From: Candidatus Poribacteria bacterium
Lineage (GTDB): Bacteria > Poribacteria > WGA-4E > WGA-3G
DNA length: 64,000 bases
Direction of reading: 5' to 3'
Assembly: GCA_965205015.1 (NCBI GenBank)
Contig: OZ242029.1
Coordinates: forward strand, 4,768,001 to 4,832,000
The notes under the pieces are model-generated. The model was not told the origin of the DNA. It saw nothing but the letters and a program-made list of their open reading frames with translations, and did no database searches. Position numbers and translations under genes: made by a program. Each line of letters starts with the position of its first letter. Positions within the stretch are counted from its first letter, which is position 1. Positions 25,235-43,458 of this stretch are shown here, piece after piece.

Positions 25235-25286
25235 TACCCATAGCTTACATCCGATTGCTCGTTCCCGGATGAGCTTCGCCCTAAAC

Positions 25287-25759: not shown

Positions 25760-26653
25760 GTGAATATGGAAAGGGAAGAGATCATCCATAGATTTCAGAA
25801 CTTGAATGTATGGAAAAGAGGACATAAAGTAGCACCCCACAAGCCTCTTTTAGTCTTGTACGCAATTGATAAATTGCGACGTGGAGAAAACCAACTTATA
25901 CCATACACAGAAGTAAAGGAGAAACTTTCAGAATTACTGATCAAATTTGGAACAAGCAAGTCGGAACCCCGTCCTCACTATCCGTTTTGGCGCCTACGCC
26001 AAGATAATGTTTGGAAAGTAACCGACGATCATCTTATTAAGGAAACCGACAGCGGAGATGCCCACGTCACTGACCTGAAGCTCCACGGTGTCTCTGGAGG
26101 ATTTCACAAAGCAATTGCTCATCACCTACAGAACGATTTCAGCCTTACTTTAGAAATAAGCGAAAGCATGCTTGATCATTTTCGTTATTCAAAACACAAG
26201 GATATTTCACAGGCTGTTGGGATTGAGGACCTGTCTCATGTGCCCAAACGACAAAGACGAGAGTGGAACTTTCCCAAAAACGTACGGAAAGCCTATGAAT
26301 ATAAATGTGCAGTTTGTGGTTTTGATGTAAAATTGCACCACCGACATGTTGCGCTAGAAGCCGCACATATTCAGCCCCTTAAAAAAGGTGGACCTGATAT
26401 AGCAGAAAATGGCTTGGCTCTTTGTTCACTACACCATGAACTATTTGATCGTGGAGTTTTCACGTTGTCGGAGCAATTAAAAGTACTCGTGTCTAAGTAC
26501 GCAAATGGGTCAACGGGCTTTGATAAATGGTTGATGCGTTTTCATGGAAAGAAAATCAATCTTCCGCAGAGTCGAATGTATTACCCTCGCATCAGCTTTA
26601 TAGACTGGCATTTCAGAGAAGTATTCAAAGACCCTTATCGCGAAAAAACTTGA
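25760..26653 (+). CDS. SBD-HNH phosphorothioate-dependent restriction endonuclease-like protein
   Basis: APHKPLLVL and HYPFWRL sulfur-binding-domain motifs; CAVC..EAAHI..NGLALCSLHH.LFD HNH domain. Confidence 0.75.
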   Translation: MNMEREEIIHRFQNLNVWKRGHKVAPHKPLLVLYAIDKLRRGENQLIPYTEVKEKLSELLIKFGTSKSEPRPHYPFWRLRQDNVWKVTDDHLIKETDSGDAHVTDLKLHGVSGGFHKAIAHHLQNDFSLTLEISESMLDHFRYSKHKDISQAVGIEDLSHVPKRQRREWNFPKNVRKAYEYKCAVCGFDVKLHHRHVALEAAHIQPLKKGGPDIAENGLALCSLHHELFDRGVFTLSEQLKVLVSKYANGSTGFDKWLMRFHGKKINLPQSRMYYPRISFIDWHFREVFKDPYREKT

Positions 26654-26940
26654 CATTTAACACAAATTTGTGCTAAAATCTAAATATGGAAAATCGGGAT
26701 ACAAATACCACAGCTAAAACACTACACCTGCTTAACCGCAATCGCTGCTCATGGCGATTCTTGATGCCCTTAAAGTCTGCTTGTATACAAGATTTTAACA
26801 AGTCGACTCGCCCCCCCCCCCCACTTTACAAACGATAAGCAATATACTTCATAAGACATTGACAGCATCTGCCAATGTTCTGTTTCCGCGCCCGCGTGTC
26901 CTCTCTCGCGATGATCCTCTATGCGGGCTGTTTTTGTTGT
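26650..26940 (+). promoter_or_regulatory. Poly-C leader element copy 1 (uORF 26686-26838, C12 at 26811-26822, hairpins, U-tract)
   Basis: TTGACA...TGCTAAAAT promoter; uORF MENRDTNTT...FNKSTRPPPPLYKR*; GCCCGC/GCGGGC stem then TGTTTTTGTTG. Confidence 0.75.
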
Positions 26941-27021
26941 CCTATCTTCTACCGTTACTCTCAATTTCTCTCTCATGTTGCTGCTTGCTCCAGAGGTTGC
27001 TACATTTTGGAGGAACGAAAT

Positions 27022-27957
27022 TTGAGTAACGCCTACACAACCGCACCTCAGACGATTCATCCATCTTTTTCGGGACACCAAACGTTTCCCTTCCGGTATA
27101 CCTGGCTCAAAAAAGGCGTTGATGCCGTGACAGAAAATCCGACCGTCTTTTCATCGGAGAACGCCTCTGTCAGTTTAGGTGTTGGAAAAAACATGGTCAG
27201 TTCTATTCGGCATTGGTGTCGAGTATCAAGACTCATTGAGACAATAAAGCCAGTACCGTATCAGCGCGGGCAATTTGCCCCCACTGCACTCGGAAAAGCC
27301 ATTTTTGACGATAAAGAAGGATTTGACCCATATCTTGATGATCCAGCCACGCTGTGGCTAATTCATTGGCAAATTGCAACAAATACCGATCCGGCAACCG
27401 CGTGGTATTGGGCATTTAATGTTTCAAGGGGCAACCAATTCACACCCCAAATATTCGCACGAGAACTGTCCAAATGGGCACAGGAAAAGAAACGATCCAT
27501 GCGGTCGGTTTCTGATAATACACTCCGACGAGATGTCAACTGCTTTATTCGAACCTACTGTCAGTCCCGTCACACCGATGTCGTTGTCGAGGAGACCCTT
27601 GATTGCCCTCTCGTTGAACTCAATTTAATTGCCGAATTGCCAGACGGTAATGGATATGAATTCCAGCGAGGTGATAAAAAAACACTACCAATCGAAACCG
27701 TTGCGTGGGCACTGGATACGTTTTGGCAGCTTTACTTCCCACGGCAAGAAGCACTCTCGTTCTCAGAATTGATGTATGCGCCATCAAGTCCGGGACGGGT
27801 TTTCAGGTTAGACGAAGACACAATGACAGTATATCTTGAGAACCTCGCACAACTCACGGAAGGTGCGTTGCAATATGATGAAACAGCAGGTCTAAAGCAG
27901 GTCTATCGACATAGAGATTTAAACCAGATGGAACTTTTAAAGGAATATTATGGGTAA
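27022..27957 (+). CDS. sspB: DUF4007 protein (SspB-like)
   Basis: FSGHQTFPFRYTWLKKG, LGVGKNMVSSIRHW, DPYL..TLWLIHW; TTG start after GGAGG. Confidence 0.8.
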   Translation: MSNAYTTAPQTIHPSFSGHQTFPFRYTWLKKGVDAVTENPTVFSSENASVSLGVGKNMVSSIRHWCRVSRLIETIKPVPYQRGQFAPTALGKAIFDDKEGFDPYLDDPATLWLIHWQIATNTDPATAWYWAFNVSRGNQFTPQIFARELSKWAQEKKRSMRSVSDNTLRRDVNCFIRTYCQSRHTDVVVEETLDCPLVELNLIAELPDGNGYEFQRGDKKTLPIETVAWALDTFWQLYFPRQEALSFSELMYAPSSPGRVFRLDEDTMTVYLENLAQLTEGALQYDETAGLKQVYRHRDLNQMELLKEYYG

Positions 27958-30900
27958 CGTCCGTTTGTCAGAACTTTTTCACATTACAGAACGTTTTCAG
28001 CGTTCGGTCCATCTGGCGCGCGATTTTTATACAGAAAACGCTTTAGATGGCTACGTCGTGACTGCCAAAGCACGGGAAACCCTCACTCGGCTCATCACAG
28101 CACAAGAAAACGGCGCGACATCAAGAGCCTGGTCTCTTACCGGACCCTACGGTTCAGGGAAATCCGCATTTGCGCTGTTCGCTGCAAAACTACTCGGAAA
28201 TTCTGAAGCACCGACAACCCGTCAGGCACTCGATCTGCTGGAACATGAAGATCCCTCGCTATATGAACGATTTATCAGCATAAACGGCAATGGAAATGGG
28301 ACCCCATCTGGATTCTGTCCGGTGCTTATCTCTGGCGAACGCGCACCAATCATACTTGCCCTTCTACGCGGTTTAGAACACGGACTCAAGACTTTCGGAA
28401 TTTCGTCCTCTAGTGCGCTTCAACGGAAGATCAGAAATCTGTTGAAAATCGCCGCAAACGGCACACCGCCACATGCATCTGAAATCACTTCGCTTTTCGA
28501 GTCGGCGGCGCGCACCGTTCGGAAAAACGGCGGCACTGGTCTATTGTTAGTAATTGATGAACTCGGCAAGTTCCTTGAGTACACCGCGCAATCTCCAGCA
28601 AAAGGCGATGTGTTTGTCCTACAAACTCTCGCCGAATTTGCAACACGTAGCGATCAGACCCCGCTATTTTTGCTGACGATTCTGCATCAGGCTTTTGAAC
28701 AATACGCAAACAAGATAGCAAAATCGCAACGTGAAGAGTGGACAAAGGTCCAAGGACGGTTTGAAGACATCGCCTTTGTAGAACCTGCAGAACAGACCAT
28801 TCGGTTGATCGCTGCCGCTATCCAGAATACATTAACTGACAAAACAGAAAACCTATCTATAGTACCCAAACTTTATCCAACTGAATTAAATCTCACACCC
28901 CACCAATTTGAGGACACTGAATTCGATCAACTCCTCCAAAACTGCTTACCACTCCACCCGACCATAGCACTTATTATCGGTCCGATCTTCAGACGATTCG
29001 CCCAGAATGAGCGTTCCCTTTTCGCCTTCCTTAACGCAAGTGAACCTTATGGACTCCAAGACTTTCTGTCAAACCAGCATTATAATGGCAGCGTGCTACC
29101 GATATTCTCGATCGCCGACCTATATGACTATCTCAATACCACCATAGGGAATAGATTAGCCGACTCAAGCGTAGGTAATAGGTGGGTGGAGATTGAAATG
29201 GCTATTAACGGAATCACTGATCCATCACCGACAACCATTAAACTCATTAAGACGATAGGGTTACTCGGTATTACCGGAGAAGTAAGCATTAATCTGAAAG
29301 CCTCAAAGCACGTTCTCCGTTATGCCTTAGATGACTGCACTGAAGGATTCACAGAGAAATTTGAAACCGCACTGGATACGCTAACAAGACGCAAGATCGT
29401 TATCCACCGTCCCCGAAACGACACCTATGCCCTTTGGGAAGGCAGTTACATTGACATTGAAGCCAAACGCCATGAGGCGGAACAACATCTTGATCCAAAC
29501 CAAAGTCTCACAACTTATCTTTCAACGCTCGCGCCCCCTCGACCTCTCATCGCCCGCCGACACCTGTTCGAGAAGGGGACACTCCGCTATTTCGCCCTTC
29601 GTTACACCGACGCTGAAAATTTCGACGCGTCGCTCAGTGAACCACTCGGCGATGCAGACGGACTCGTTCTCTATGCCCTCCCCGCAGACGAACATGAAGG
29701 TAGGCACCTCATTGAAAAAGCGAAGGCCAAAGCCGTTGTAAACCGTAAAGAGATCCTGATTGCAATCCCGCATTCCACCAGCTTTCTGCACGACGCTGTT
29801 ACCGAACTCGCCTGTTTACAGTGGATCTCGGAAAACACACCGGAACTCGACGGCGATCCAGTCGCAAGGCGAGTCCTTTCACGCCGACGGTTAGAAGCGG
29901 AACAAAATGTAACCGAGCAGTTCGCAGCCATCTTTGGTAACGACAGCGAGAATACTTGCAAATGGTTTCACAAAGGACAAAAAGTAAATATCAATTCTCA
30001 ACGCGAAAGAAATGAACATCTATCAAAAATCTGCGATGTGGTTTACCACGAAACCCCCATTATTCTGAATGAACTGATCAATCGGCGTAAAATCTCCGGC
30101 ACTGTAACAACCGCACGCAAGAGATTAATTCAAGCGATGCTCGAAAACGGCGATCAAGAACACCTCAGCATTACTGGCTATCCTCCTGAAATGAGTATCT
30201 ATCGTTCCCTCTTATGGAACACAGGGATACACCGCGAAGTTGAAGGTGTATGGGGATTCCACCCACCACATCCAGAGGATAAAAACGAAATATCGCGCAC
30301 ATGGCAAGCGATCGAGACGTTTCTTGGCAAATGCGAAGGTGAGAGACAACCTGTCGAGAAACTCTATGAAAACCTGATGGCACCACCCCTGGGCGTGCGA
30401 AACGGTCCTCTACCTATCCTCTTGTGTGCCGCGATGCACCATTACAAAACAGAAATAGCACTTTATGAAAACGGCTCCTTTATCGCAAATTGGTCAATGC
30501 CGGTCTTTGAAAGGCTCCTTAAAGCACCGCAACAATTTGAGCTGAAACGGTTTCGGATGACGGGTATCCGCTCGGATCTGTTTTCACAGTTTTCAGAGGT
30601 ATTCAATCAATCGACAGACACCCAAAAACCCGATCTGTTGACAGTCATCACACCGCTCATGCGCGCCATCGCACAACTCCCGAAGTACACTTTGGGGACA
30701 CAAGAATTGCGTGATAACGCGAAAAATCTCCGTAAAGTTGTGCTGAATGCGCGTGAACCTGACGAACTCCTCTTCAAACAATTGCCGGAGGCTTTTGGCT
30801 TTTCTGCCTTTAGCGAGGAGGCGGCAACAGATTCAAGGACTATTTCGGAATTTTTCAGGACACTCCAAGATGCATTGTCCGAGTTAGAACAGGCGTATGA

Positions 30901-31366
30901 CATCCTACTGAATTCGGTTGAACAACTGCTTGCAGAGGCGTTCAGTTTAACACCGACGGCAGAAAAACTCCGCGTAGAACTGGTCAAAAGAGCCGAACCT
31001 TTGTTAGCGGTAACAATTGAAATGGATCTTAAAGGATTTTTAATCCAAGTTTGTAGCGGCGGACACGCTTTCAGCAGTTGGCTTGAAGCCATCGCGACCT
31101 ATCTCGCCAAAAAACCGCCTCCAGCGTGGATAGAGGCAGATAAAGCCCAATTTGAGATTAATCTCTCTCAAATCGCAAGAAAGTTTCGGCACTTTGAAGC
31201 GGTATCCTATGAAAAAGGGAAGCACATAGTCGACGAACAAACCGCTGCCATAGAACACGAGATCAAAAAAGTTTTCGACAAATTCAACGTAGACAACAAC
31301 CCGGAACTCCATATCGCAATTTTAGCACGAATTTCACAAAAATGGATACAACACCTTGACGAATAG
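27950..31366 (+). CDS. sspC: Large P-loop ATPase (SspC-like)
   Basis: Walker A GPYGSGKS, Walker B VIDELGK, EWTKVQGRF, QNERSLF; lies between DUF4007 and PAPS reductase genes. Confidence 0.75.
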   Translation: MGNVRLSELFHITERFQRSVHLARDFYTENALDGYVVTAKARETLTRLITAQENGATSRAWSLTGPYGSGKSAFALFAAKLLGNSEAPTTRQALDLLEHEDPSLYERFISINGNGNGTPSGFCPVLISGERAPIILALLRGLEHGLKTFGISSSSALQRKIRNLLKIAANGTPPHASEITSLFESAARTVRKNGGTGLLLVIDELGKFLEYTAQSPAKGDVFVLQTLAEFATRSDQTPLFLLTILHQAFEQYANKIAKSQREEWTKVQGRFEDIAFVEPAEQTIRLIAAAIQNTLTDKTENLSIVPKLYPTELNLTPHQFEDTEFDQLLQNCLPLHPTIALIIGPIFRRFAQNERSLFAFLNASEPYGLQDFLSNQHYNGSVLPIFSIADLYDYLNTTIGNRLADSSVGNRWVEIEMAINGITDPSPTTIKLIKTIGLLGITGEVSINLKASKHVLRYALDDCTEGFTEKFETALDTLTRRKIVIHRPRNDTYALWEGSYIDIEAKRHEAEQHLDPNQSLTTYLSTLAPPRPLIARRHLFEKGTLRYFALRYTDAENFDASLSEPLGDADGLVLYALPADEHEGRHLIEKAKAKAVVNRKEILIAIPHSTSFLHDAVTELACLQWISENTPELDGDPVARRVLSRRRLEAEQNVTEQFAAIFGNDSENTCKWFHKGQKVNINSQRERNEHLSKICDVVYHETPIILNELINRRKISGTVTTARKRLIQAMLENGDQEHLSITGYPPEMSIYRSLLWNTGIHREVEGVWGFHPPHPEDKNEISRTWQAIETFLGKCEGERQPVEKLYENLMAPPLGVRNGPLPILLCAAMHHYKTEIALYENGSFIANWSMPVFERLLKAPQQFELKRFRMTGIRSDLFSQFSEVFNQSTDTQKPDLLTVITPLMRAIAQLPKYTLGTQELRDNAKNLRKVVLNAREPDELLFKQLPEAFGFSAFSEEAATDSRTISEFFRTLQDALSELEQAYDILLNSVEQLLAEAFSLTPTAEKLRVELVKRAEPLLAVTIEMDLKGFLIQVCSGGHAFSSWLEAIATYLAKKPPPAWIEADKAQFEINLSQIARKFRHFEAVSYEKGKHIVDEQTAAIEHEIKKVFDKFNVDNNPELHIAILARISQKWIQHLDE

Positions 31367-31378
31367 AGGGAGAAAAAC

Positions 31379-32215
31379 ATGGAACAAAAAACACGTCACC
31401 TGCTCGGTCTCTCCGGTGGTAAAGACAGTTCCGCGCTTGCCGTTTACATGCGGGACAGGGTGCCAGAGATGGAATACTTCTTCTCTGACACGGGTAAGGA
31501 ATTGCCAGAGACTTACGCGTTTCTGGATCGATTAGAGGTATTCCTCGGCAAACCGATTGCACGTCTCAACATGGAGCGGGATGCCAGCGAGAACCGCGAT
31601 TTCGATCACTGGCTGACGCTCTACGGAGGCTTGTTGCCGTCGTCTCAAGTGCGATGGTGCACTGTTAACCTTAAGATAAGACCTTTTGAGGAATACGTCG
31701 GCGAAGACAAGGCGTATAATTACGTCGCCATCCGTGCCGATGAAGACCGTGTCGGTTATAAACCGCTGAAAACCGCCGCCCTCCGCAACATCGAGCCGAA
31801 GTACCCGTTCAAAGAGGATGGCATCACCAAAGAGGATGTCTACCGAATTCTGGAGGAAAGCGGTCTCGGTCTACCTGATTATTACAACTGGCGGACGCGT
31901 TCGGGGTGTTATTTCTGTTTTTTCCAGCGCAAATCCGAGTGGGTGGGACTCTTAGAGCAGCATCCAGACCTCTTTGAACTCGCCAAGGCATACGAGAAAT
32001 TCAACCCAGAGACAGGCGAACGGTTCACGTGGTGTCAAGGTGAAAGCTTAGAGGAACTGTCGCAACCCGAACGGATCGCGCAAATCAAGGCAAATACTGA
32101 AAAGGCGATGGCATCCAAGAAAACGGCAAAACCGAATCGTCGTTTGATAGAGATTCTCACCGATGTTCATGACGACGAAGATGACGAAGAACCGTGTCTG
32201 ATTTGTCACAAGTGA
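31379..32215 (+). CDS. sspD: PAPS-reductase family protein (SspD-like)
   Basis: SGGKDSS, RWCT, RSGCYFCFFQ, C-terminal CLICH. Confidence 0.8.
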   Translation: MEQKTRHLLGLSGGKDSSALAVYMRDRVPEMEYFFSDTGKELPETYAFLDRLEVFLGKPIARLNMERDASENRDFDHWLTLYGGLLPSSQVRWCTVNLKIRPFEEYVGEDKAYNYVAIRADEDRVGYKPLKTAALRNIEPKYPFKEDGITKEDVYRILEESGLGLPDYYNWRTRSGCYFCFFQRKSEWVGLLEQHPDLFELAKAYEKFNPETGERFTWCQGESLEELSQPERIAQIKANTEKAMASKKTAKPNRRLIEILTDVHDDEDDEEPCLICHK

Positions 32216-32263
32216 TAATTCTATAATATCAAAACTATTTATACAATAAGAGGTGTCTAACCT

Positions 32264-33538
32264 ATGAGAACAATTTCACTAGACAACGGTTTAGACAACG
32301 GTTGGCCCATTGATAGGGTCATCAGAAGGAGACCACGGATAAATCCACAACCCCAATATCAACGAACACCAGTTTGGAACGACACAAAAAAACAATTACT
32401 TATTGACTCAATACTTCGGGGATATGACTTACCTAAATTCTATCTGCGCTCATCTACTAACGGATATGAACACGAGGTTGTCGATGGTCAGCAAAGACTT
32501 CTCGCAATTTGGGATTTTCGGGACGATCAGTATGCGTTAGGAAATACATCAAAAGATATACCTAATTTTGGAGATTTATCAGGCAGAAAATTCTCAGAAT
32601 TACCCAGCGAAGCACAAGATCAATTTGGAGAATTTAAACTTAATTTGGTTGTGATAGAGGAAGCATCAGACTTAGAAATACGGCAGCTTTTCTTAAGATT
32701 GCAGGAAGGAGTTAGCCTGAATCCTCCAGAAAAACGGAACGCTATGTCTGGTAATATGCGTGATTTTGTAGCAGACTTGGGGGAAAACCACCGAATTTTT
32801 CGCACAGAATTAATTCGTCTTCCTGATACAAGATTTCAGTGGCATGATTTAGTGGCAATAGTAACATGCTTAGAAATAGCTGGAGGACCAACAGATGTTA
32901 AAGCTCCTAGTCTGAAAAAGATGTACGAGGATGAGCAGGAGTTTAATAACAATGGAACCATTTCCCAAAAAGTAAAACGATACTTGAATTATATGGCAAG
33001 AGTTTTTGAAGCCCCTGAAACCCCGATTCCCGAAACAGATATTAAGTGGGGCTTCGTAGACTTGTACCTACTGATTTCAAAAATGGATGCCTCCTATGCT
33101 ATCAGTCAGCGAGAACAAGACTTTAAAAATTTTTACATTACTTTTGAAGGCGAGAGACGAGAAAATATGAGTGATTATGGTTCACTACGTGCTGGTCAAG
33201 ATCTTTGGAATAGAGACTTATATAATTATATTGAGGCATTCATTCGTTCAGGGGGTACAAAAAAGAATATCAACACGAGACATAAAGTATATAAAAGACG
33301 ATTTCTTAGAGATTTTCCAGACTTAGTGTCGAAAGACCCTCAACGTAGATTCACTAACGACCAACGGATTTTCATTTGGCGCCGAGCCAATGGTAAGTGT
33401 CAAATATGCGATGCAGAGATTAATTTGAATCAAATGCATGCCGATCATATCATTTGTCATAACGAAGGTGGAAGAACAACCCTTGAAAACGGACGAGCAC
33501 TTTGTATACCATGTAACACTAGTAGAGGTGTTACATAA
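32264..33538 (+). CDS. DUF262 + HNH protein (SspE/GmrS-like)
   Basis: YQR..W, VVDGQQRL, F.RLQ.G..L; C-terminal CQIC..HADH..GG.T...N...LC..CN. Confidence 0.8.
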   Translation: MRTISLDNGLDNGWPIDRVIRRRPRINPQPQYQRTPVWNDTKKQLLIDSILRGYDLPKFYLRSSTNGYEHEVVDGQQRLLAIWDFRDDQYALGNTSKDIPNFGDLSGRKFSELPSEAQDQFGEFKLNLVVIEEASDLEIRQLFLRLQEGVSLNPPEKRNAMSGNMRDFVADLGENHRIFRTELIRLPDTRFQWHDLVAIVTCLEIAGGPTDVKAPSLKKMYEDEQEFNNNGTISQKVKRYLNYMARVFEAPETPIPETDIKWGFVDLYLLISKMDASYAISQREQDFKNFYITFEGERRENMSDYGSLRAGQDLWNRDLYNYIEAFIRSGGTKKNINTRHKVYKRRFLRDFPDLVSKDPQRRFTNDQRIFIWRRANGKCQICDAEINLNQMHADHIICHNEGGRTTLENGRALCIPCNTSRGVT

Positions 33539-33609
33539 TCTCATTTTCAATACTCATACTTGAAACTTGATTTATGAATTTACCTAATTGACCGTCTATA
33601 GACTAAAAA

Positions 33610-36027
33610 ATGAAGCAACTTTTCAAAAAATTATACTTTGTCCAAACTGAGGACAACATTGATAAAATCATCAGCAATCATCCGGATATTTTCAAACCTG
33701 AAAATTGGTATCCTCTCGGTGGTCATGAAAATAATTTCGGTGTCATCGAAAATCAACAATCTACCCCGATTGCAGCACTAATTGAGAAAATTACGAACTC
33801 AATTGATGCTGTTTTGATGAAGAAATGCTTGCAAGCAGGCATCAATCCCACATCCAATCAAGCTCCCCAATCCATGGATGAAGCTAGAACGAATTTCTTT
33901 CCAAAACACAGAGACTGGGATCTGGCAGGACTCCGAAATCAGCAAGCCGAGAGCATTCAAGTTCTTGCCGACGGACCACGCGGCAATACCTCCCTGATTA
34001 TTTATGATGATGGCGAGGGACAACATCCTGAAGAATTCGAGAACACCTTCCTTTCATTGTTGCGAGGAAATAAGAACGAAATCCATTTTGTTCAGGGCAA
34101 ATACAATATGGGTGGGAGCGGTGCCATTGTGTTCTGTGGTAAAAAGCGATACCAATTAATCGGTTCAAAGCGTCACGATAACACCGGGGAATTCGGTTTC
34201 ACACTGATTAGAGAACATCCACTGAGCAAAGCAGAAGAAAACACCAAAAAGAATACATGGTACGAATACCTAAAGATTGATGGAAAAATCCCTGCTTTTC
34301 AAGCAGATAGGCAGGATTTAGGACTGCATAAAAGAACTTTCACAACAGGAACAATTATCAAACTCTACTCCTACGATCTTCCCGCCGGAATCTCAGATAT
34401 TTCAAGGGATTTGAATCGGAGCATTAACGAATATCTATTTGAACCTGTCTTGCCCGTGTATACAATTGAAAAAGAGGAACGCTATCCTAAGAGTTCTTTG
34501 CGAAGGGGTTTATACGGACTAAAACGCAGATTGGAGCAGGAAGATAATAAATACGTTGAAGAATCGTTTTCTTTAGATTTTGACGACGAACTTTTTGGAC
34601 AAATGAAAGTGACGTGTTACGTATTCAAAACAAAAATAGACGACAGATCCGTCAAAGAAACTAAGGAAACAATTCAGCGAGAGTTTTTCAAAAACAGAAT
34701 GTCCGTGCTATTTTCAGTCAACGGACAAGCACATGGACACTATACATCCGAATTCATAACTCGCTCCCTAAAATTAAATTTACTTAAGGAACACCTCCTT
34801 ATTCATGTTGATTGTACGAAAATGGCTCCCAATTTCCGCAGAGAATTATTTATGGCATCTCGAGACCGGTTAAAAGATGGTGAAGAAACTCGTGTGTTAC
34901 GGAAATTTTTGGCAGATAAGCTCGGAGCAAAAGATGGACGTTTAGCGGAAATTCAGAAACGGAGGAAAAACTCTATAGCAATAGAAAGTGAGGACGCGAA
35001 AGACTTGATTAGATCTTTCGCACAAAATCTCTCACGAAACCAAGATTTGTTGCAGTTGTTAGGGCAAACTCTAAACTTAGACCTACAAACTAAAGGAAAT
35101 CAGAAAAGAAATTCTAACAGCTCAACCAAGAAAAAACCAAAGCAAAATGACATGCAACCTTTTAATTCGCAAAGATTTCCAGCATTTTTCAAACGACGTG
35201 TGCGCGGAAGCTCCGGAAATGGGGTGGTGGCAATCCCAATTGGTGGTGAGAAAACAATCCTCTTTGACACAGATGTCGAAAACAATTATTTTGATCGCAT
35301 CGAAGAACCAGGGGAATTAAAAATTGCCATTCTTGATTTCAAAACAAATGAAACCGAAGGTGGAGATGCCCCAGGTAAAGTTGATCGGATCGAAGATGTA
35401 TTCAATGCCCGGAAAAGTAGTCCTCAAGACGGAACAATAAAGATTCATCTCAATCCGAAAAAAGAAGTAGATGTCGGAGATGAAGCAAGGATTAAAGTGA
35501 GTCTTAGCGACCCTAGCGGTAACTTTTTTGAGGAAACATTCTGGGTAAAGATAAGCGAACCCCAAGCACCTCCGCAACCTTCGCCTAAAACTGAAAATAA
35601 AGAAATTCCGAATTTAGGTTTGCCTGAGATGAAATTAGTTTATGAAAAAGATTGGGAGCAATTTGGAGAAGCAGGCGAAACAATGGATTATTCTACTGTG
35701 ATGTACCCTTATGTTGAAGGTGAGAAATTAGAAATCATCTACATCAATCTGGATAGTACTGTTTTGAAAAATTTCAGAGCGAAAACCAGAAATGCCAGTC
35801 AGGAACAGTTAGAAATAGCCAATCAAAGATATATCGCCTCTGTATATTCACACACATTGCTTTTGTATTCAATTACAAAGGCACATAAATACGAGATTGT
35901 GCAAGAGGAAAATGGCAGAGATTCTGATGTTGAATTAGGCACTTACCTCAAAGATTTGTTCGACAATTATTACGCAGAATTCCTTCTGAACTTCGGTTTT
36001 GATGATATTATGCAATTGCTGGAATAA
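33610..36027 (+). CDS. GHKL (HATPase/MORC-like) ATPase domain protein
   Basis: EKITNSIDA, DDGEG, GKYNMGG, GT GHKL motifs in the N-terminal third. Confidence 0.7.
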   Translation: MKQLFKKLYFVQTEDNIDKIISNHPDIFKPENWYPLGGHENNFGVIENQQSTPIAALIEKITNSIDAVLMKKCLQAGINPTSNQAPQSMDEARTNFFPKHRDWDLAGLRNQQAESIQVLADGPRGNTSLIIYDDGEGQHPEEFENTFLSLLRGNKNEIHFVQGKYNMGGSGAIVFCGKKRYQLIGSKRHDNTGEFGFTLIREHPLSKAEENTKKNTWYEYLKIDGKIPAFQADRQDLGLHKRTFTTGTIIKLYSYDLPAGISDISRDLNRSINEYLFEPVLPVYTIEKEERYPKSSLRRGLYGLKRRLEQEDNKYVEESFSLDFDDELFGQMKVTCYVFKTKIDDRSVKETKETIQREFFKNRMSVLFSVNGQAHGHYTSEFITRSLKLNLLKEHLLIHVDCTKMAPNFRRELFMASRDRLKDGEETRVLRKFLADKLGAKDGRLAEIQKRRKNSIAIESEDAKDLIRSFAQNLSRNQDLLQLLGQTLNLDLQTKGNQKRNSNSSTKKKPKQNDMQPFNSQRFPAFFKRRVRGSSGNGVVAIPIGGEKTILFDTDVENNYFDRIEEPGELKIAILDFKTNETEGGDAPGKVDRIEDVFNARKSSPQDGTIKIHLNPKKEVDVGDEARIKVSLSDPSGNFFEETFWVKISEPQAPPQPSPKTENKEIPNLGLPEMKLVYEKDWEQFGEAGETMDYSTVMYPYVEGEKLEIIYINLDSTVLKNFRAKTRNASQEQLEIANQRYIASVYSHTLLLYSITKAHKYEIVQEENGRDSDVELGTYLKDLFDNYYAEFLLNFGFDDIMQLLE

Positions 36028-36174
36028 TAACTTCACAAAGCATCAACACCCAAAAAAGTGTATCTAATCCCATAAATCCTGATTCAAACAACAGCAAAAT
36101 TCTTTTCCCAATTTCCGCCGACTCCGTGTATAATGGGGTATCGTTCTGATGCCAATAAAACACGGAGAACATAG

Positions 36175-36324
36175 ATGTCCGATCCCAACATCAAACCTAC
36201 GCATAAACCTATCAAAATCTATTACGCCGAACTGGAAAAATATGCCCAACTCGGTGAGGAAAACGAAGGCACTGTCCGTGCAGCATTTCAAAATCTTCTG
36301 CAACCTTACTGCCACCAATCCTAG
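36175..36324 (+). pseudogene. N-terminal remnant of a fused restriction-modification (type ISP/IIG-like) gene
   Basis: RBS GGAGA; MSDPNIKPTHKPIKIYYAELEKYAQLGEENEGTVRAAFQNLLQPYCHQS*; family recalled from memory. Confidence 0.55.
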
Positions 36325-36662
36325 TTACAGCGAAGAGATAGATATGAATTGGGACAACGTCGGACGTTTAGTAAAAGCTGCATCAGGAATAGATTGGCGC
36401 AAGGATGGTGAATACGAAGGAAGAACAGGAGAAGCAGCTGGGAAAGTTATGGCAGATGAAATGATACGCCTATTGCCAACTGAAGGGGTTATCGCAGGGT
36501 CATTCAATTGTAGGTTTTTTTCGGCGTTTTCGCCAAGACATCGCGAGCCTGGGGAAACACCCAAGCAAAAACACTCGCGCCTACAGGGCTCCTTGGGAAC
36601 CGAAAATCCAAAATTTCGGAAAATTGAATAGCCCTGATGCGATGTACGATGTACAATTTTAT

Positions 36663-37070
36663 TTGACCTTCAGGCAAATTTGTGTTATAATTAACCTTCA
36701 AGATTCGCGTCTAAAAAATGTACCCTTTTCCGTAGAAGTCTGTTATAGTAAAATCCGAAAATATGTTCACACTTGTAGCATAGGCGACCGTTAGTCTCCT
36801 GTGCATCCCTGAATCACGCGTATGAAGACTTATAGAGACCCCCTTCTTCTGAACATATCCACAGCAAACATGCCTTCGTGCTGGGTCCCGGTATCCGACT
36901 GGGGCACCATTAGCCAAGGCGCGATTACCCCCCCCCTCTTAATTCACGTGAAGTAATTTTACATATCTATCTCATAAACTGCGTCCGCAGCTTCGCTGCT
37001 GTCGCGGTTTTTTCGCGCCCGCACGCGCTGCGTTTCCACACGTCTGCCGCGTTGCGGGCTATTTTTGTTG
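36663..37070 (+). promoter_or_regulatory. Poly-C leader element copy 2 (uORF 36822-36956, C9 at 36928-36936)
   Basis: TTGACC-N17-TATAAT; uORF MKTYRD...ITPPLLIHVK*; GCCCGCA/TGCGGGC stem then TATTTTTGTTG. Confidence 0.65.
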
Positions 37071-37144
37071 CATTGGGATTCCACCGGATGCTTTTTGCAA
37101 GTGTTGGGCGGTCCCGATACATCTACCCTTGAGGGTTAACCAAA

Positions 37145-37183
37145 TAGGACTTACGCATTTCCTTTTAATATGCGTAAGTCCTA
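37145..37183. mobile_element. Minimal MITE-like element, TIR TAGGACTTACGCAT
   Basis: 14-bp perfect inverted repeat; same TIR core at 39043-39187 and 60599-60691. Confidence 0.6.
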
Positions 37184-37210
37184 CCAAACTTAAAGAAGGA
37201 AAGACTCACA

Positions 37211-39034
37211 ATGTTTAGATTCTGCATCTTATCAATTCTCTGTGTATACGTTACCGCATCAGCCGCGTTTGCGCATCCTGATCCTGGCGATGGTTACCAC
37301 TTCGGGACTACACGTGGCATCAAATTAATAGTGGGCGGGGAGAACAACGAGAGGTTCATCGGACAGAGAGAGCCTGATGCTGAAGGTTACCACATTCATA
37401 GGTACAGCTATACAATTACTGTGGATGGGGGTTCGGTAGGGCTAATATGGGAGAAAACATTTAAAACTGGCGAAGATCCTCCTCCCCCCGATACGCTGCC
37501 AGACGGCTATTTCCCTAGGTTTGGACCTAGAAAGGAAGTTACTGATGACCTAGGTCCGGAGCACATAGTCCACCCACCGGCGCATTCTCATGGCGTTACA
37601 CACGAACATGGCACCTATGTGTCCCACACGCATACAGTGTGGCACACACACGCTGGGGATGCCTCGCAGCACACGCACACTTACACCGAGTCTGAAACTC
37701 ACAGCCTCTCGGATGGCAGCCACACGGGCGTAGGCACCAGGCAACAGAATAACCCACCCCCAGGGTCAAGCGGACGTGAAGAGGAAGAAGGGCGTAGTGG
37801 ACCACCCCCAGGTGATAATCCACCCCAGCAGCAGTTGCATTCTCATGAGGTTACACACCAACATGGCACCTATGTGTCCCACACGCATACAGTGACACAC
37901 ACTGGAGATGCATCGCAGCACACGCACTCTTACACCGAGTCTGAAATTCACAGCCTCTCGGGTGGCAGCCACACGGGCGTAGGCACCAGACAACCGGTGC
38001 AGAACCCACCTCCAGGTAATAACCAAGGTAATAGCCAACCCCAGCAGAGGTCGCATTCTCATGAGGTTACACACCAACATGGCACCTATGTGTCCCACAC
38101 GCATACAGTGACACACACTGGGGATGCCTCGCAGCACACGCACACTTACACCGAGTCTGAAATTCACAGTCTCTCGGGTGACAACCATGTGGGCGTAGGC
38201 ACCAGACAACTGACGAATAACCTACCTCCAGGTGATAACCAAGGTAATAGTCCACCCCCAGCGGGAGGGGAGGGTGGAACTCCTGAAGGGACATCCAATG
38301 GAGCCACGACTACCACAGTAGCGACTCCAGTCGTAGGGGAGGGCGGGGGCACCCCTGAAGGGACATCCAGTCCTCAACAGGTCGTGTCAAGTGGTCCCCA
38401 AGCAACGCAACCCGGGGCTCCACCCGAGCGTCAACCTTTATTACCCATACGCATCACAGAGTATATGGTCAGAGATTGGACGGCTGGGATTGGTGGATTA
38501 CCACAGTGGATTGAGGTGTATAACCCCAACACCGAGGCAGTCAACCTCAAAGGTTACACGTTCCAATATGCCACCCGACGGTCGGCCAATGCCCCCCATA
38601 AAGTCCATACGCTGACACTCGCTGGAACACAGGACGGGTTCAGCATAGCGGGAGGCGGCGTAGCGATCCTATCAACCCGAAAAGTTCCGGCATGGCGATT
38701 TTCCGGTATTGGAGCCTCCCAGGTCTACAACTTGAGCATAGACAACGTCCTCAAACGCGGGTGGGTGTTGACGGATGCCAATGGCAAGGAGATTCACCGT
38801 CTCGGTAGGGCTGCCTTTAGTGCGTTAGGGGATCCGGTGGCACCACTCCATCAGAACAAGGCGCGGGTCTCTTATCAGGTCGTCCCGAGCGAGTCGCCCC
38901 CGGAGGTTTATTACTATGGACATCGGGAAGACATCGGGTCTCCTGGGTTCTACAAGCAACCGGCGCCGGCGGCCCCGAGTGCGGTCAAACGCAAGCGAGT
39001 CGGCACCTGGGCGAGTCTGAAGCAAACGCCATAA
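37211..39034 (+). CDS. Secreted His-rich repeat protein with C-terminal lamin-tail-like domain
   Basis: Signal peptide; three ~52-aa HSHxVTHxHGTYVSHTHTV repeats; IRITEYM..PQWIEVYNP..VNLKGY; tail GTWASLK. Confidence 0.8.
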   Translation: MFRFCILSILCVYVTASAAFAHPDPGDGYHFGTTRGIKLIVGGENNERFIGQREPDAEGYHIHRYSYTITVDGGSVGLIWEKTFKTGEDPPPPDTLPDGYFPRFGPRKEVTDDLGPEHIVHPPAHSHGVTHEHGTYVSHTHTVWHTHAGDASQHTHTYTESETHSLSDGSHTGVGTRQQNNPPPGSSGREEEEGRSGPPPGDNPPQQQLHSHEVTHQHGTYVSHTHTVTHTGDASQHTHSYTESEIHSLSGGSHTGVGTRQPVQNPPPGNNQGNSQPQQRSHSHEVTHQHGTYVSHTHTVTHTGDASQHTHTYTESEIHSLSGDNHVGVGTRQLTNNLPPGDNQGNSPPPAGGEGGTPEGTSNGATTTTVATPVVGEGGGTPEGTSSPQQVVSSGPQATQPGAPPERQPLLPIRITEYMVRDWTAGIGGLPQWIEVYNPNTEAVNLKGYTFQYATRRSANAPHKVHTLTLAGTQDGFSIAGGGVAILSTRKVPAWRFSGIGASQVYNLSIDNVLKRGWVLTDANGKEIHRLGRAAFSALGDPVAPLHQNKARVSYQVVPSESPPEVYYYGHREDIGSPGFYKQPAPAAPSAVKRKRVGTWASLKQTP

Positions 39035-39042
39035 AAAAACCT

Positions 39043-39187
39043 CAGGACTTACGCAGTTCCTCCTAAAGTCCCCCTACCCCCTGATAAGGGGGATATGGGG
39101 GGTGAAGGATTTAGGGGATTAAATCACTGAAAGAACGCCTTTTTCGGTGAAATCTATTCCTTTTTTATCCGATGTGCGTAAGTCCTG
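39043..39187. mobile_element. MITE-like element, TIR CAGGACTTACGCA
   Basis: 13-bp perfect TIR; internal CCCCCT-GATA-AGGGGG palindrome. Confidence 0.6.
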
Positions 39188-39323
39188 TCTATAAAAGCCA
39201 ATCCTCAATCAAGACGGTTCTCTCATCCTGAAAATCCTGATTCAGACAATTTTACCCTCCAAATCCCGAAACTACCCGCTGATTGCTGAAAACTGAATAT
39301 CCTCGAGGGTTATCGCGAAAAAC

Positions 39324-39700
39324 TTGACATCTCACACACGTTTATGCTATAATTTAATCACAATGCTCAACTAACGGAAATCGCCTAATTTGCTGCTAAA
39401 AAATTATGCGACAGGTGCTGCAGTTGAAGGGATAATACCAGCAGGATATGAAGAACCAAGATACGAACGCCACACCCAAAACACGACACCTACTCGATAG
39501 CAATCGCTATCCATGGCGATCCTTAATGTGCTTAGCGTTCATGCGTGCATTAGGATTTAACAAGCCGACTACCCCCCCCCACTTTACAAAAAACAAGTAA
39601 TTTACTTCACAAAACATTCACGGCATCCGCGAATGTTCTGTCCTCATGCCCGCACGCCATCTCGTCTGATGGCACCCAATGCGGGCTATTTTTGTTGTCA
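39324..39700 (+). promoter_or_regulatory. Poly-C leader element copy 3 (uORF 39448-39600, C9 at 39572-39580)
   Basis: TTGACA-N18-TATAAT; uORF MKNQDTNAT...FNKPTTPPHFTKNK*; two hairpins then TATTTTTGTTG. Confidence 0.8.
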
Positions 39701-39740
39701 TATTTTCCGCACAATTATAGGTCCATAAAGGAGAAAGCGA

Positions 39741-40823
39741 ATGAAAAATAGATTAATTTTTATTGTTTGTCTATTGGTTCTACTCGGTACTCCCGTGTAT
39801 GCGCAATCCGGATTTTACGAATTACCCATCAGCAAAAAGGCGGTCGGTATAGGCTACCAACGCTACAGACCGCCGAAACGGACAGATGCCTCTTTTCGCT
39901 TTCATGCACAAACGATATTAGGGAGTCTCGACTACGCTTTCAGCCGTGATCTAAAGGTCTCACTCCTACCGGGTGTTTCTTTTTTTGATGTCAATACGCA
40001 GAATCCTACTGAGATCGCACCCAGTCCTTCTATTGATATAAGGTTACTCAACATTAACGAGCTGAACATGACGGGATTGAAGTTTTTCATATCAGGCGGG
40101 TTCAGGACCCAATACATGAATATCGTCCGTACTGGGAATTTACCCCTGCATTCTGTGAACATGGCACTCCGAGGCGGTGCGGGATTCCTGCATCTCCTTG
40201 AGACAGATCACGGATGGAAACTCAAGCCATTTTTCGCACTATTCGCAACACAGGTCTGGGACAACGTCTCAAGTGCTAAAAGATTGTACGTCAATACGTC
40301 AAGAAACTTTTTCACCGGTGAAGCAGGTGTAGAAATAGAGTTGTCGCCGACGATGAGTGCCATCGGGAGCATTGAATTCCCTTTTGATTCTTCAGAATTA
40401 CTGTATCGTTTCGGCGTGAACTTCCATCAAGCACCCTCTCTGAATATACCCCGTGAAACGACATCACAAAACGGCAGCGTTGAGACAGACACGCCGGAAG
40501 TTGTTGCTGAATCGGGGCAGATCCATTACGAGCCGAATCTTGAGGTCGCCGGTCCCCAGTACAAATCCAAAGTTGATCCGAAGTATCCAGAACTCGCAAT
40601 CGCTGCGGGGCAGATCGGTGTGGTCATCTTAGAAACAATCATCAATGAAGAGGGTATCCCGATAGACATCGTTAAACGGACAAATCTCGGATACGGACTC
40701 GAAGCAGCGGCACTTGCGGCGTTGAAGCGGACAAGATTCCATCCTGCGATATACCGTGGAGAGCCAATCCCGATGCGGGTCACGATACGCTATATTTTTA
40801 GAATTCAAGATACAATCAGATAG
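39741..40823 (+). CDS. Secreted protein: beta-barrel-like N-domain fused to TonB C-terminal domain
   Basis: Signal peptide; amphipathic beta strands ending YRFGVNF; PKYPELA..G.V.L...I..EG...FHPA..RGEP TonB_C. Confidence 0.7.
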   Translation: MKNRLIFIVCLLVLLGTPVYAQSGFYELPISKKAVGIGYQRYRPPKRTDASFRFHAQTILGSLDYAFSRDLKVSLLPGVSFFDVNTQNPTEIAPSPSIDIRLLNINELNMTGLKFFISGGFRTQYMNIVRTGNLPLHSVNMALRGGAGFLHLLETDHGWKLKPFFALFATQVWDNVSSAKRLYVNTSRNFFTGEAGVEIELSPTMSAIGSIEFPFDSSELLYRFGVNFHQAPSLNIPRETTSQNGSVETDTPEVVAESGQIHYEPNLEVAGPQYKSKVDPKYPELAIAAGQIGVVILETIINEEGIPIDIVKRTNLGYGLEAAALAALKRTRFHPAIYRGEPIPMRVTIRYIFRIQDTIR

Positions 40824-40831
40824 GGGGTCGT

Positions 40832-41428
40832 ATGTTACAAAAATTTCTCTACGCGTGCATGTTGATATGTTGTCTACTGGGGTGCACTTCAGACAGCTCA
40901 GATGATAATTCGATATTTCCAACACCCCTCGTGCCCGAACCCGAACCGACACCCCAAACGCCCCCACCGGTCGTTGAGGTGCCTATTATAGTAGAACCCA
41001 TTGAGGAAAAGATTGATGTACCGCCCGTCGACCCAATCGTTGAGGATGAAGTCGAGCCTGAACCTGTTGAAGAAGCCGAGCCTGAGCCTAAAGACAGGAC
41101 AGCACCCCGCCTCATTGATAGCAGCATCTCACATGGTGATGTAGGCATCGATCCAGACACAGAGCGTTTCATTTTTACATTCGATGAGGAGATCGGGCGC
41201 GCCGATATAAAACTCATCAATAACACGCTCAAGATTGATATGGAATGGACAACGCTTTTAGATGGCAAACGCGTCATCCTTTTGAGAGTGCCAGGGGAGG
41301 GGCGTCGGATGATGATGGGCGAACTCTATACAATACAAATGCGATGGCGGGATGAAGCAAATAATTGGGAACCTGAAAATTTCGGAGTTATTCACGTTAT
41401 TACCTTCATCACTGAGGTCAAGGAATGA
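40832..41428 (+). CDS. Lipoprotein with Pro/Glu linker and Ig-like domain
   Basis: LLGC lipobox; DRTAPRL..SS...GD.G, FTFDE. Confidence 0.7.
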   Translation: MLQKFLYACMLICCLLGCTSDSSDDNSIFPTPLVPEPEPTPQTPPPVVEVPIIVEPIEEKIDVPPVDPIVEDEVEPEPVEEAEPEPKDRTAPRLIDSSISHGDVGIDPDTERFIFTFDEEIGRADIKLINNTLKIDMEWTTLLDGKRVILLRVPGEGRRMMMGELYTIQMRWRDEANNWEPENFGVIHVITFITEVKE

Positions 41429-41910
41429 TTATGAAATACTTATATCCTTTTTTTTGCTGCATCTGTCTCATGGGGTGTACGACGGATAGCATAGATAACA
41501 GCAATGGGAGCACAATATTTCCAACACCGCCAAGCGTCACAGAACCTCAGACGGCAGATGCTCTTCCAGAACAAACGCCACTCACAAATGTTGTTGAGAA
41601 CGCCGTTGAATGTCCGCCTGAATTTCAGGGCGAGTTTGTCAGTGGTACACTCAATGATGAAGGTTCTGAGCGTAAGAGAATAAATTTCAACGATAAATTC
41701 GTCGTCTATTATTACACTTTGAATTTGGTGCTAAAGGATTCTATCTCTATTAAGATTATCCTTGAAGAAGCTGCACTCGCCCGATCTAAGGAAGGTAAAC
41801 GGCAGATAATCGCTGGAGATTTCTTATTGGTGAAGTTAGACCATCTCTTAGAACCCGGAATATGGAAAGGGGTCTTGGTGAAAAACTTAACCCAAAATAT
41901 CTCCTTTTAA
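41425..41910 (+). CDS. Hypothetical lipoprotein
   Basis: LMGC lipobox; N-terminus resembles that of 40832 (GCT.DS.D..IFPTP). Confidence 0.65.
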   Translation: MIMKYLYPFFCCICLMGCTTDSIDNSNGSTIFPTPPSVTEPQTADALPEQTPLTNVVENAVECPPEFQGEFVSGTLNDEGSERKRINFNDKFVVYYYTLNLVLKDSISIKIILEEAALARSKEGKRQIIAGDFLLVKLDHLLEPGIWKGVLVKNLTQNISF

Positions 41911-41952
41911 GAATACTAAACTTTGGACAATTTTTAAAAATCCCTCGTGTGA

Positions 41953-42036
41953 CAAGAGGAGAACATCGACGCATGGCATGCGGCAGTCTCCGAATTCAGA
42001 GAGACGGTGCCGGAACTCGGTGAGAAGTTGGCAGCA
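41953..42036 (+). pseudogene. Internal remnant, possibly of the same R-M gene as 36175-36324
   Basis: QEENIDAWHAAVSEFRETVPELGEKLAA with no start codon; family recalled from memory. Confidence 0.4.
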
Positions 42037-42277
42037 CCCAATTTTGATCATTGTCCGCGCTGTGAGATGGGACACCTGTAAAAAACGCAGTCGGTCCAAG
42101 GGCACAACCTAACAGGTTATGCTACAAAAAAGCAGTATGCGAAAGTCCACCGGACAAATAAAATTTGACAGTCAAGGGGTGTCGTGCTATACTGTATAAT
42201 ACGGTCAGCTTCAGAACAGGATAGCGCAGAATTCATAGTCTGATGATACTTGTACGGGCAAATTATAAGGTACCCCC

Positions 42278-42511
42278 TTGAATAAAACAAAGATGACCTA
42301 TTTTGAGAAAGAGGATATACTGCATCTGGCGATTTCTGAGGAGCCAGAAAGTGATAGTTTGGAACTCAGTCCCAATATCACCGCCGAATTGAACAGTGAC
42401 GGTGAACTTATCGGGATTGAAATTCTGAATGCCAGCATCTTCATTCGGGATTCGATTTTAGAATCCGCTCACGCAAAAATGCTATCACTCACCAAAATCC
42501 AGTCCACCTAA
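42278..42511 (+). CDS. DUF2283 domain protein
   Basis: YFEKEDILHL...ELNSDGELIGIEILNAS. Confidence 0.8.
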   Translation: MNKTKMTYFEKEDILHLAISEEPESDSLELSPNITAELNSDGELIGIEILNASIFIRDSILESAHAKMLSLTKIQST

Positions 42512-42824
42512 TAGGATATGGCACGCTTGAACAGATATAACGTGAATTCGACTTAAGTCCCTCCGCTGGTGAGGTTGCCTCAATACCCCGTTTCACTCTC
42601 AAAAAATCCGCGTCATCCGCGATAATCCGCGATTCAGACAACTGGAAAATTGAATACCGCTGTGGTTCTATCGCAGGGTGATTTCGTTTTCGATTTCACG
42701 TTTAGTTTTAGTTCCCTTCTGTGAAGAAAAAATATATAAAACGTAAGCGTTACACCTGTTACGGCACACGGCGTGTGCCTACTACTTTTAAAACTAAATA
42801 GCCCTGGGTTCTATTGAGAAAAAT

Positions 42825-43185
42825 TTGACATCTCATACAGGTTTATACTATAATTTAATCATAATGTTCAACTAACGGAAATCAGCTAATTTGCTGCTAA
42901 AAAATTATGCGACAGGTGCTGCATTACAAGCAGGATATGAAGAACCAGGATATGAACACCACACCCACAACACGATACCCATTCAATAACAATCGCTATC
43001 TACGGCGATGCTTAATGTGCTTAGCGTTCATGCAGGCATTAAGATTTAACAAGCCGATTACCCCCCCCCACTTTACAAAAACTAAGTAATTTTCACAAAA
43101 CACTTACAATATCCGTTAATATTTCCTATTTGCGCCCGCGCGCCATCTCGTCTGATGGCACTCAATGCGGGCTATTTTTGTTGTC
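42825..43185 (+). promoter_or_regulatory. Poly-C leader element copy 4 (uORF 42937/42907-43089, C9 at 43061-43069)
   Basis: Close nucleotide paralogue of 39324-39700; uORF MKNQDMNTT...FNKPITPPHFTKTK*. Confidence 0.8.
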
Positions 43186-43209
43186 ATATTTTCCGCATAA
43201 TTATAGGTC

Positions 43210-43430
43210 TATAGCTGTATTGATTATTTCCGCAGGCAGAACGTCTCCGATGCCCTCGAACCCCTGCCCCTCATTGACGAAGGACGTATCGCCGCCACAG
43301 AAGCGTGTCCATCGCCCGGACTTGCGCGCGACGCCCTTCGCCAGCAACTTCAAAGTGCGATTGCCAAACTCACCCCGATACGCCGCCGTGTGTTCTGCCT
43401 TTACTACCCCGAAGCGCAGCCGATCAAAGC
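43210..43430 (+). pseudogene. ECF sigma factor internal fragment
   Basis: YSCIDYFRRQ (end of region 2) ... LQSAIAKLTPIRRRVFCLYY.E..PIKA (start of region 4); both ends missing. Confidence 0.6.
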
Positions 43431-43458
43431 GGAGAAAAAAAGGATTCTGGAGGTTTTC

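Follow-up and report, generated by a model that had tools for sequence, protein, structure and literature searches.

What could place one and the same leader in front of four unrelated genes or operons within 64 kb of a bacterial chromosome? The question is raised by a stretch of 64,000 nucleotides (hereafter, the window) from a Candidatus Poribacteria bacterium (assembly GCA_965205015.1, contig OZ242029.1, positions 4,768,001 to 4,832,000). An earlier note on this DNA had pointed to four copies of a leader composed of a promoter, an upstream open reading frame (uORF) running into a tract of C residues that encodes prolines, a hairpin (hairpin A) and an intrinsic terminator, and had proposed that the frame set by the tract switches the gene that follows. 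Reading of the sequence verified all four copies, with their shared layout, at the places where they had been reported. We find that the leader is genuine, occurs widely and constitutes a regulatory cassette that had escaped annotation, and that, as far as searched, it is confined to Candidatus Poribacteria. It probably works by tract-length phase variation, in which the number of C residues would decide whether a ribosome covers the terminator and would thereby turn surface and defence genes ON or OFF at random, a reading that leans on analogy with a streptococcal system.

The C tracts of the four window copies are 12 nucleotides long in copy 1 (26811-26822) and nine nucleotides long in copies 2, 3 and 4 (36928-36936, 39572-39580 and 43061-43069, respectively). 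These are the only runs of at least eight C or G in the 64 kb (11 overlapping matches, compared to a mean of 1.5 in shuffled sequences). Likewise, a pattern combining the tract with the terminator matched the four leader sites only, with no match of any kind in 100 shuffles, and the 3' terminator motif GCGGGCTNTTTTTGTTG occurs four times in the window versus 0.08 expected. A promoter scan placed the sites at 39324, 42825 and 36663, which belong to copies 3, 4 and 2, among the four best of the scanned region, the fourth being a site at 42165 that scored 11/12. In all four copies the uORF reaches a stop codon 13-17 nucleotides past the tract, and the ends of the frames that had been predicted to open upon gain or loss of a single C were reproduced in every copy. 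The covariation claimed for hairpin A was also recovered: copies 1 and 3 adopt an identical fold in RNAfold, in which two pairs have changed in a compensatory manner (G-C to C-G and A-U to G-C). No Rfam family scored at or above its gathering threshold anywhere in the window.

The same architecture was found well beyond this locus. When one genome per species was scanned with an exact pattern (185,579 species), 19 matches were obtained, and all 19 belong to Candidatus Poribacteria. A covariance model of the leader, built from 23 copies, yielded matches in five of five complete genomes (5-11 each) and in 70 of the 120 genomes of the phylum that were sampled, with 1-20 matches per genome and approximately 440 in all. 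Scans of 241 million metagenome records returned no match carrying the locus-specific flanks and two matches to the family pattern; among 175 genomes of the phylum, the closest DNA identity to the window was 75-79%.

Family-wide comparisons were made on copies located by nhmmer in fetched sequences, of which 137 were unique and 113 contained a tract of at least seven nucleotides. The tracts of these 113 copies are 7 to 34 nucleotides long, most often 11. An ATG-initiated uORF of at least 25 codons enters the tract in 100 of the 113; in the comparison with shuffled upstream sequence it was present in 98 of 110 real copies, while the shuffles averaged 21.8 and never exceeded 33. A strict promoter match lies upstream of 57 copies, compared to five on the antisense strand. 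Past the tract come a short hairpin that contains the early stop codons, hairpin A (median z of -2.0 relative to shuffles) and the terminator, with a median stem of 15 pairs followed by a T run. Six of the seven outer pairs of the terminator stem show compensatory changes across the 113 sequences. The prolines are always encoded by CCC within the homopolymer, in runs of two (27 of the 100 uORFs), three (39), four (30), five (3) or eleven (1). A gene on the same strand was called 3' of the leader in 101 of the 113 copies, at a median distance of 87 nucleotides past the U-tract. The most extreme expansion, a C34 tract encoding 11 prolines, was observed in a single copy (L073, genome G035), which reads into the long frame.

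In 111 of the 113 copies, one or more frames contain no stop codon all the way from the tract through the U-tract (one frame in 82, two frames in 29), compared to 33 of 113 on the antisense strand and 61% in dinucleotide shuffles, where the maximum over 200 sets was 81 of 113. The stop codons of the 100 uORFs are distributed in a bimodal manner, with 77 located 0-39 nucleotides past the tract, 23 beyond the U-tract and none between. The open frame occurs at each of the three offsets (49, 32 and 59) and in each of the three registers that it can take relative to the terminator. Changes by codon position number 520, 364 and 352 in the uORF (180 synonymous and 800 nonsynonymous) and 534, 527 and 405 in the extension, the part of the open frame past the tract, where nonsynonymous changes again dominate. 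Because all offsets are used and the changes are not of the protein type, what is conserved is the openness of the frame and not a peptide. Openness conserved without protein-type selection is the signature of a regulatory reading frame.

This bears on the peptide that the shifted frames of copies 1, 3 and 4 had been said to share. The similarity is real, but it follows from similarity of the nucleotides; conservation as protein does not hold, since across the family all offsets and registers are used and third-position changes show no excess. For the same reasons a conserved protein encoded by the extension was rejected. The uORF as a real small protein, or as the precursor of a ribosomally synthesised and post-translationally modified peptide, was also rejected, as its third codon positions show no excess of changes and the two window peptides compared, those of copies 1 and 3, match no Pfam family. 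Many uORFs do begin alike (for example L009, L012, L014 and the window uORF at 39448), with the pattern M-(Q/K/R)-(N/S)-(R/G)-x-(I/L)-N-x-N..K and, by eye, some synonymous codon differences, while the remainder of the peptide drifts freely; this motif may reflect a constraint on translation initiation or on the nascent peptide.

The tract itself changes rapidly. Among 21 pairs of copies with flanks at least 88% identical, tract length differs in 16, while the flanks of the 21 pairs contain 58 gap positions in 4883 nucleotides; four of the 16 pairs have no gap at all across approximately 220-245 nucleotides of flank. In two complete genomes, 15 of the 20 C or G runs of at least nine nucleotides lie inside leader matches, with C always on the sense strand, and long C runs therefore seem to be purged elsewhere and kept in leaders.

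Domains were sought in 74 of the 101 downstream genes (at least 150 codons; at most the first 450 residues of each), which yielded 16 with LRR, 11 with cadherin, nine with DUF4007, eight with Big_9, four with fn3 and three with FGE-sulfatase domains. DUF4007, which we take to be the SspB-like first gene of Ssp phosphorothioate defence, illustrates, with its nine copies, that the leader precedes related genes in different species. Downstream genes are mostly LRR, cadherin or fn3 surface proteins, together with Ssp defence. Surface and defence functions are what contingency loci classically control. Poribacteria are uncultivated sponge symbionts whose LRR, cadherin and fn3 proteins, termed eukaryote-like, are commonly regarded as mediators of their interactions with the host.

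A mechanism for such a leader has been worked out in Streptococcus gallolyticus, where changes in a GCAGA repeat lengthen the leader peptide of the pilus loci pil1 and pil3 and move its stop codon into or past the terminator hairpin, as shown experimentally (Danne et al. 2014, PMC3894217). Additionally, translating ribosomes are known to keep intrinsic terminator hairpins from forming, a protection that depends on EF-P at polyproline (PMC5021804). Starting from the observed architecture and its conservation, the frame statistics, the tract instability between relatives, the terminator covariation and the kinds of genes, we infer switching and its effect on transcription by analogy with pil1. 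The cassette combines a strong promoter of the sigma-70 type with a leader frame that is translated but non-coding-like and has the C tract near its end, followed by a hairpin and an intrinsic terminator; of the three frames, two stop within 39 nucleotides past the tract and one stays open. Slipped-strand mispairing at replication would add or remove a C, so that tract length would be heritable but unstable. At most lengths the leader frame would end 30-65 nucleotides 5' of the terminator stem, and the hairpin would form, transcription would stop at the U-tract and the gene would be silent or weakly expressed (OFF). In the open frame, the ribosome trailing RNA polymerase would cover the 5' arm of the terminator and permit read-through into the gene (ON), and the proline run would also make this read-through dependent on EF-P. 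The comparison of 113 copies fits well with the portable ON/OFF cassette at the core of the earlier note's reading, and pil1/pil3 provide a proven precedent; taken as a whole, that reading is partly supported.

Several observations weigh against this mechanism or limit what the counts can carry. ON states occur less often than chance would give (23 of 100, compared to 40.3 expected for a random frame), which could indicate selection for the short state and not free switching. They are also clustered by genome, with five of seven analysed copies ON in one complete genome (G004) and none of six in another (G001); this could be biology or homopolymer assembly error, and such error may therefore colour the ON and OFF states assigned here. 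The open-frame stop lies within 20 nucleotides of a crude gene start in 38 of 99 copies, a figure without a null model that we do not use as support, and the long frame is thus not proven to be coupled to the downstream start. The analysed set was drawn from the matches in the complete genomes and from 150 of the approximately 440 matches in the sampled genomes, mainly higher-scoring ones, leaving out approximately 290 with lower scores, and its members are related by descent, so that copy counts overstate their independence. Finally, in public sequencing runs consulted as assembled contigs (the form of all 13 runs), no indel was seen at the four window tracts among the matches listed for four runs, contigs being a form of data that drops rare variants, and in another study a contig covers the copy 4 tract without a gap and at an unchanged length. 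In three runs, the end of a contig falls within the C12 tract of copy 1 (at 26813, 26814 and 26821), which may represent length variants or homopolymer error and is not counted as evidence.

Could the open frame instead be entered at the RNA level, by a switch that is not heritable? Ribosomes might slip by +1 or -1 on CCC codons, or RNA polymerase might slip on the tract, and the fraction arriving in the open frame would suppress the terminator; were this fraction to depend on EF-P, on modification of tRNA-Pro or on proline supply, the leader would be a physiological rheostat. A run of C is known to let tRNA-Pro re-pair in any frame, the open-frame design would serve such slippage equally well as it would a DNA-level switch, and many copies have a predicted small hairpin right after the tract. 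Loss of EF-P, furthermore, uncouples translation from transcription at polyproline and raises intrinsic termination (PMC5021804). However, the direction in which the frame would have to move is mixed. To reach an open frame, 34 of the OFF copies need one additional C and 29 need one fewer, while 12 would be opened by either change and two by neither; for a ribosome these correspond to 34 shifts of -1 and 29 of +1, and programmed sites are usually one-directional. A length switch fits this mixture better than does a one-directional programmed frameshift. In addition, the 23 ON copies are already fused in frame, the post-tract hairpin is short and A/U-rich, 27 of the 100 uORFs encode only two prolines (which also weakens stalling at CCC codons, the alternative included in the original proposal), and the fast change in tract length between close relatives is what a DNA-level switch would produce. 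We regard slippage at the RNA level as an unlikely explanation.

The two levels could also be combined. Heritable tract length would then set the frame, while slippage and stalling on CCC, governed by EF-P and tRNA-Pro status, would set the number of ribosomes that arrive in the open frame and keep up with polymerase. Under such an arrangement, up to approximately 20 leaders per genome would link the state of the translation apparatus to stochastic display of eukaryote-like surface proteins and to phosphorothioate defence. We offer this two-level leader as a speculation with a small chance of being correct.

A second alternative is a classical stalling attenuator, in which pausing at the prolines, as a sensor of proline or of EF-P, would refold the leader and its terminator, and the open third frame would be incidental. 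In every copy with a uORF, the leader peptide does carry consecutive prolines close to its C-terminal end, in runs of three to five in 72 of 100, and a terminator comes next, as in amino-acid operon leaders. Such a device would call for an antiterminator, and none is conserved: when the leaders were folded with the 3' arm of the terminator withheld, the 5' arm paired with the uORF region in 40 of 104 copies, compared to 38 (29-45) when the uORF region was shuffled. Moreover, the prolines are invariably CCC codons in an uninterrupted C run whose length may take any value and need not be a multiple of three, which points to selection on the nucleotide run, and the 27 uORFs with a single pair of prolines speak against a stalling sensor as well. 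As the attenuator would also leave the 111 open frames of 113 and the bimodal stops unexplained, we consider it improbable.

Lastly, the leader might not control its neighbours at all. The copies could be related small RNA genes, or a dispersed repeat of promoter and terminator, without switching, with the short transcript as the product and the genes as mere bystanders. A promoter followed after 250-370 nucleotides by a terminator does resemble a small RNA gene, copies 3 and 4 share sequence that extends past the leader (family D8), and the absence of an Rfam match leaves the class of the RNA open. This alternative is nevertheless very improbable given the same-strand gene in 101 of 113 copies at so short a distance from the U-tract, the retention of uORF and open frame far above chance, the recurrence of DUF4007 behind the leader in different species and the low copy number of 1-20 per genome. 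A mobile element resembling a miniature inverted-repeat transposable element can be set aside on the low copy number and on the fact that every copy faces a gene, although no search for terminal repeats or target duplications was made.

We now return to the four copies in the window, all of which lie on the forward (+) strand and are at present in the short, OFF state. The copy 1 promoter (26650-26679) consists of TTGACA at 26650-26655, an 18-nucleotide spacer and TAAAAT at 26674-26679, and was read by eye, as it lies outside the promoter scan. Because the ATG of the uORF is only seven nucleotides 3' of the -10 box, this uORF may be leaderless. It spans 26686-26838 (50 codons) and ends CGC CCC CCC CCC CCA CTT TAC AAA CGA TAA. 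Hairpin A, which carries the two compensatory pairs relative to copy 3, occupies 26851-26883, and the terminator occupies 26890-26935, with the stem GCCCGC..GCGGGC at 26890-26928 and the T run at 26931-35. Upon gain of one C, the open frame (26823-27029) crosses hairpin A as well as the terminator and overlaps the start of the DUF4007 gene, a TTG at 27022, before reaching its stop codon (TAA, 27027-27029). The genes that follow (27022-36027) encode, according to Pfam, the SspB-like DUF4007 protein, a large ATPase, a PAPS-reductase-like protein, a GmrSD_N+HNH protein and an HATPase_c_3 protein, the composition of an Ssp-type phosphorothioate defence system. Upstream of the HNH gene that precedes copy 1, two direct repeats of 95 nucleotides (25393-25487 and 25558-25652; 77% identical) lie within an open reading frame at 25269-25688.

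Copy 2 has a promoter at 36663-36691 (TTGACC, 17 nucleotides, TATAAT; scan score 11/12), a uORF of 44 codons at 36822-36956 that contains the C9 tract, and a terminator with its T run at 37017-37066; one additional C would open a frame to 37130-37132. The downstream gene (37211-39034) is repeat-rich and encodes a lamin-tail domain (Pfam). Within it, at 37581-38238, three tandem units of approximately 216-255 nucleotides are 89-93% identical (families D5, D7 and D9) and offer another possible route to length variation of a surface protein.

In copy 3, the promoter lies at 39324-39353 (TTGACA, 18 nucleotides, TATAAT; scan score 12/12) and the uORF of 50 codons at 39448-39600, followed at 39609-39693 by hairpin A (39609-39641), the terminator stem (39648-39686) and the T run (39689-39693). 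Both of the other frames are open in this copy, to 39726-39728 with one more C and to 39749-39751 with one fewer. Its downstream gene, at 39741-40823, encodes a TonB C-terminal domain (Pfam), and in another genome of the phylum (G113) a leader match is found directly 5' of a stretch matching this gene.

The promoter of copy 4, at 42825-42854, again consists of TTGACA, 18 nucleotides and TATAAT (scan score 12/12). Its uORF runs over 42937-43089 with 50 codons when counted from the ATG homologous to that of copy 3, or has 60 codons from an ATG at 42907, and the terminator with its T run occupies 43134-43180; loss of one C would open a frame to 43484-43486. The gene behind it (43390-45060) had been grouped with sterol genes, which over-reads the evidence, as Pfam identifies a GMC-family oxidoreductase. 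Read by eye, its likely start is a TTG at 43459, 3' of which lies the twin-arginine-like motif FITRRQF. The stretch 43213-43458 (270 nucleotides between the copy 4 terminator and this twin-arginine-like start) is open in the frame of the GMC gene and matches the first 23 positions of Sigma70_r4_2, although weakly and below threshold (E 0.02, 15 bits); it may be the remnant of a sigma-factor gene cut by rearrangement.

Several stretches between the cassettes (36554-36585, 39077-39103, 39225-39248, 42604-42641 and 42761-42791) act as very high-copy repeats in the public runs, with a summed contig depth of up to tens of thousands and with many joints and loose ends. A number of contig joints bypass entire modules of leader plus gene, for example from 39103 to 42789; the sides of these joints are shorter than 30 letters, and they may reflect repeats or other organisms.

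If tract-length phase variation is indeed how the leader works, surface types and defence states would vary in a mosaic fashion within each symbiont population, and views of symbiont persistence, of escape from host phagocytosis and of phage resistance that are drawn from metagenomes would change. A mechanism known from two pilus loci in one streptococcus would extend to a modular cassette with a wide distribution in a distant phylum. Annotators gain a recognisable element, absent from Rfam, with approximately 440 matches in 120 genomes, and homopolymer length at leader tracts would be biologically meaningful and should not be "polished" away. A full-text literature search, with subscription journals outside its coverage, returned no paper that links Poribacteria or sponge symbionts with phase variation.

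Parts of this arrangement are familiar from other bacteria. As in the trp and his attenuators, translation of a short leader frame would decide the fate of the intrinsic terminator downstream; unlike in those leaders, there is no antiterminator helix beyond chance, and the variable appears to be the reading frame and not the supply of charged tRNA. Variable homopolymers in an mRNA leader are likewise known to set downstream expression, but in that system a small RNA pairs with the repeat, which is not read in a leader frame, and there is no terminator. In Neisseria meningitidis siaD, Lavitola et al. 1999 (as cited in PMC3025981) reportedly described a poly-C frameshift that leads to an early translation stop and to loss of the downstream transcript, the same sequence of events that is proposed for the Poribacteria leaders. 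There, however, the tract lies in the structural gene and the loss is Rho-dependent, with no dedicated leader or intrinsic terminator. The contingency loci of Campylobacter, Neisseria, Haemophilus and Helicobacter resemble the Poribacteria tracts in having variable G or C runs of approximately 8-13 nucleotides at surface and restriction or defence genes of host-associated bacteria (PMC3025981). In Poribacteria, too, most long G or C runs lie in the leaders (all four in the window and 15 of 20 in two complete genomes), with LRR, cadherin, fn3 and DUF4007 genes downstream. In those contingency loci the usual place of the tract is the gene itself or the promoter spacer, whereas in Poribacteria it lies in a separate leader frame and would act through a terminator. 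EF-P-dependent coupling provides a further parallel, in that polyproline ahead of a translated terminator makes read-through dependent on EF-P (PMC5021804).

The closest counterpart is found in pil1 and pil3, and for the mechanism the statement that no such family had been described is therefore wrong. The Poribacteria leaders possess three features of pil1-type control: a translated leader frame that contains a slippage-prone repeat, an intrinsic terminator before the gene, and a short frame that stops before the hairpin together with an alternative frame that runs past it. As in the pilus loci, a slippage-prone repeat within a leader-peptide gene precedes a stem-loop terminator, and the short frame stops 5' of the hairpin at a similar distance (39 bp in pil1, 30-65 nucleotides in Poribacteria). 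An out-of-frame change in the repeat yields a longer peptide that stops in or after the hairpin, with the ribosome preventing termination, as would be expected to occur in Poribacteria as well. Further, the majority of cells (in the case of pil) or of copies (in Poribacteria) are in the low state, and surface structures are under control in both (PMC3894217 for the pilus loci throughout). The differences lie in the repeat, which is a C homopolymer in Poribacteria and consists of GCAGA units in the pilus loci (PMC3894217), in the host, an uncultivated phylum of the Gram-negative type and not a streptococcus, and in scale, as 70 of 120 sampled genomes carry the leader, each with 1-20 copies that precede unrelated genes, compared to two pilus loci. 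The likely mechanism of the leader thus has a precedent in print and is not categorically new; the C-tract cassette is a further form of it, notable for its scale and for its cargo in an uncultivated symbiont.

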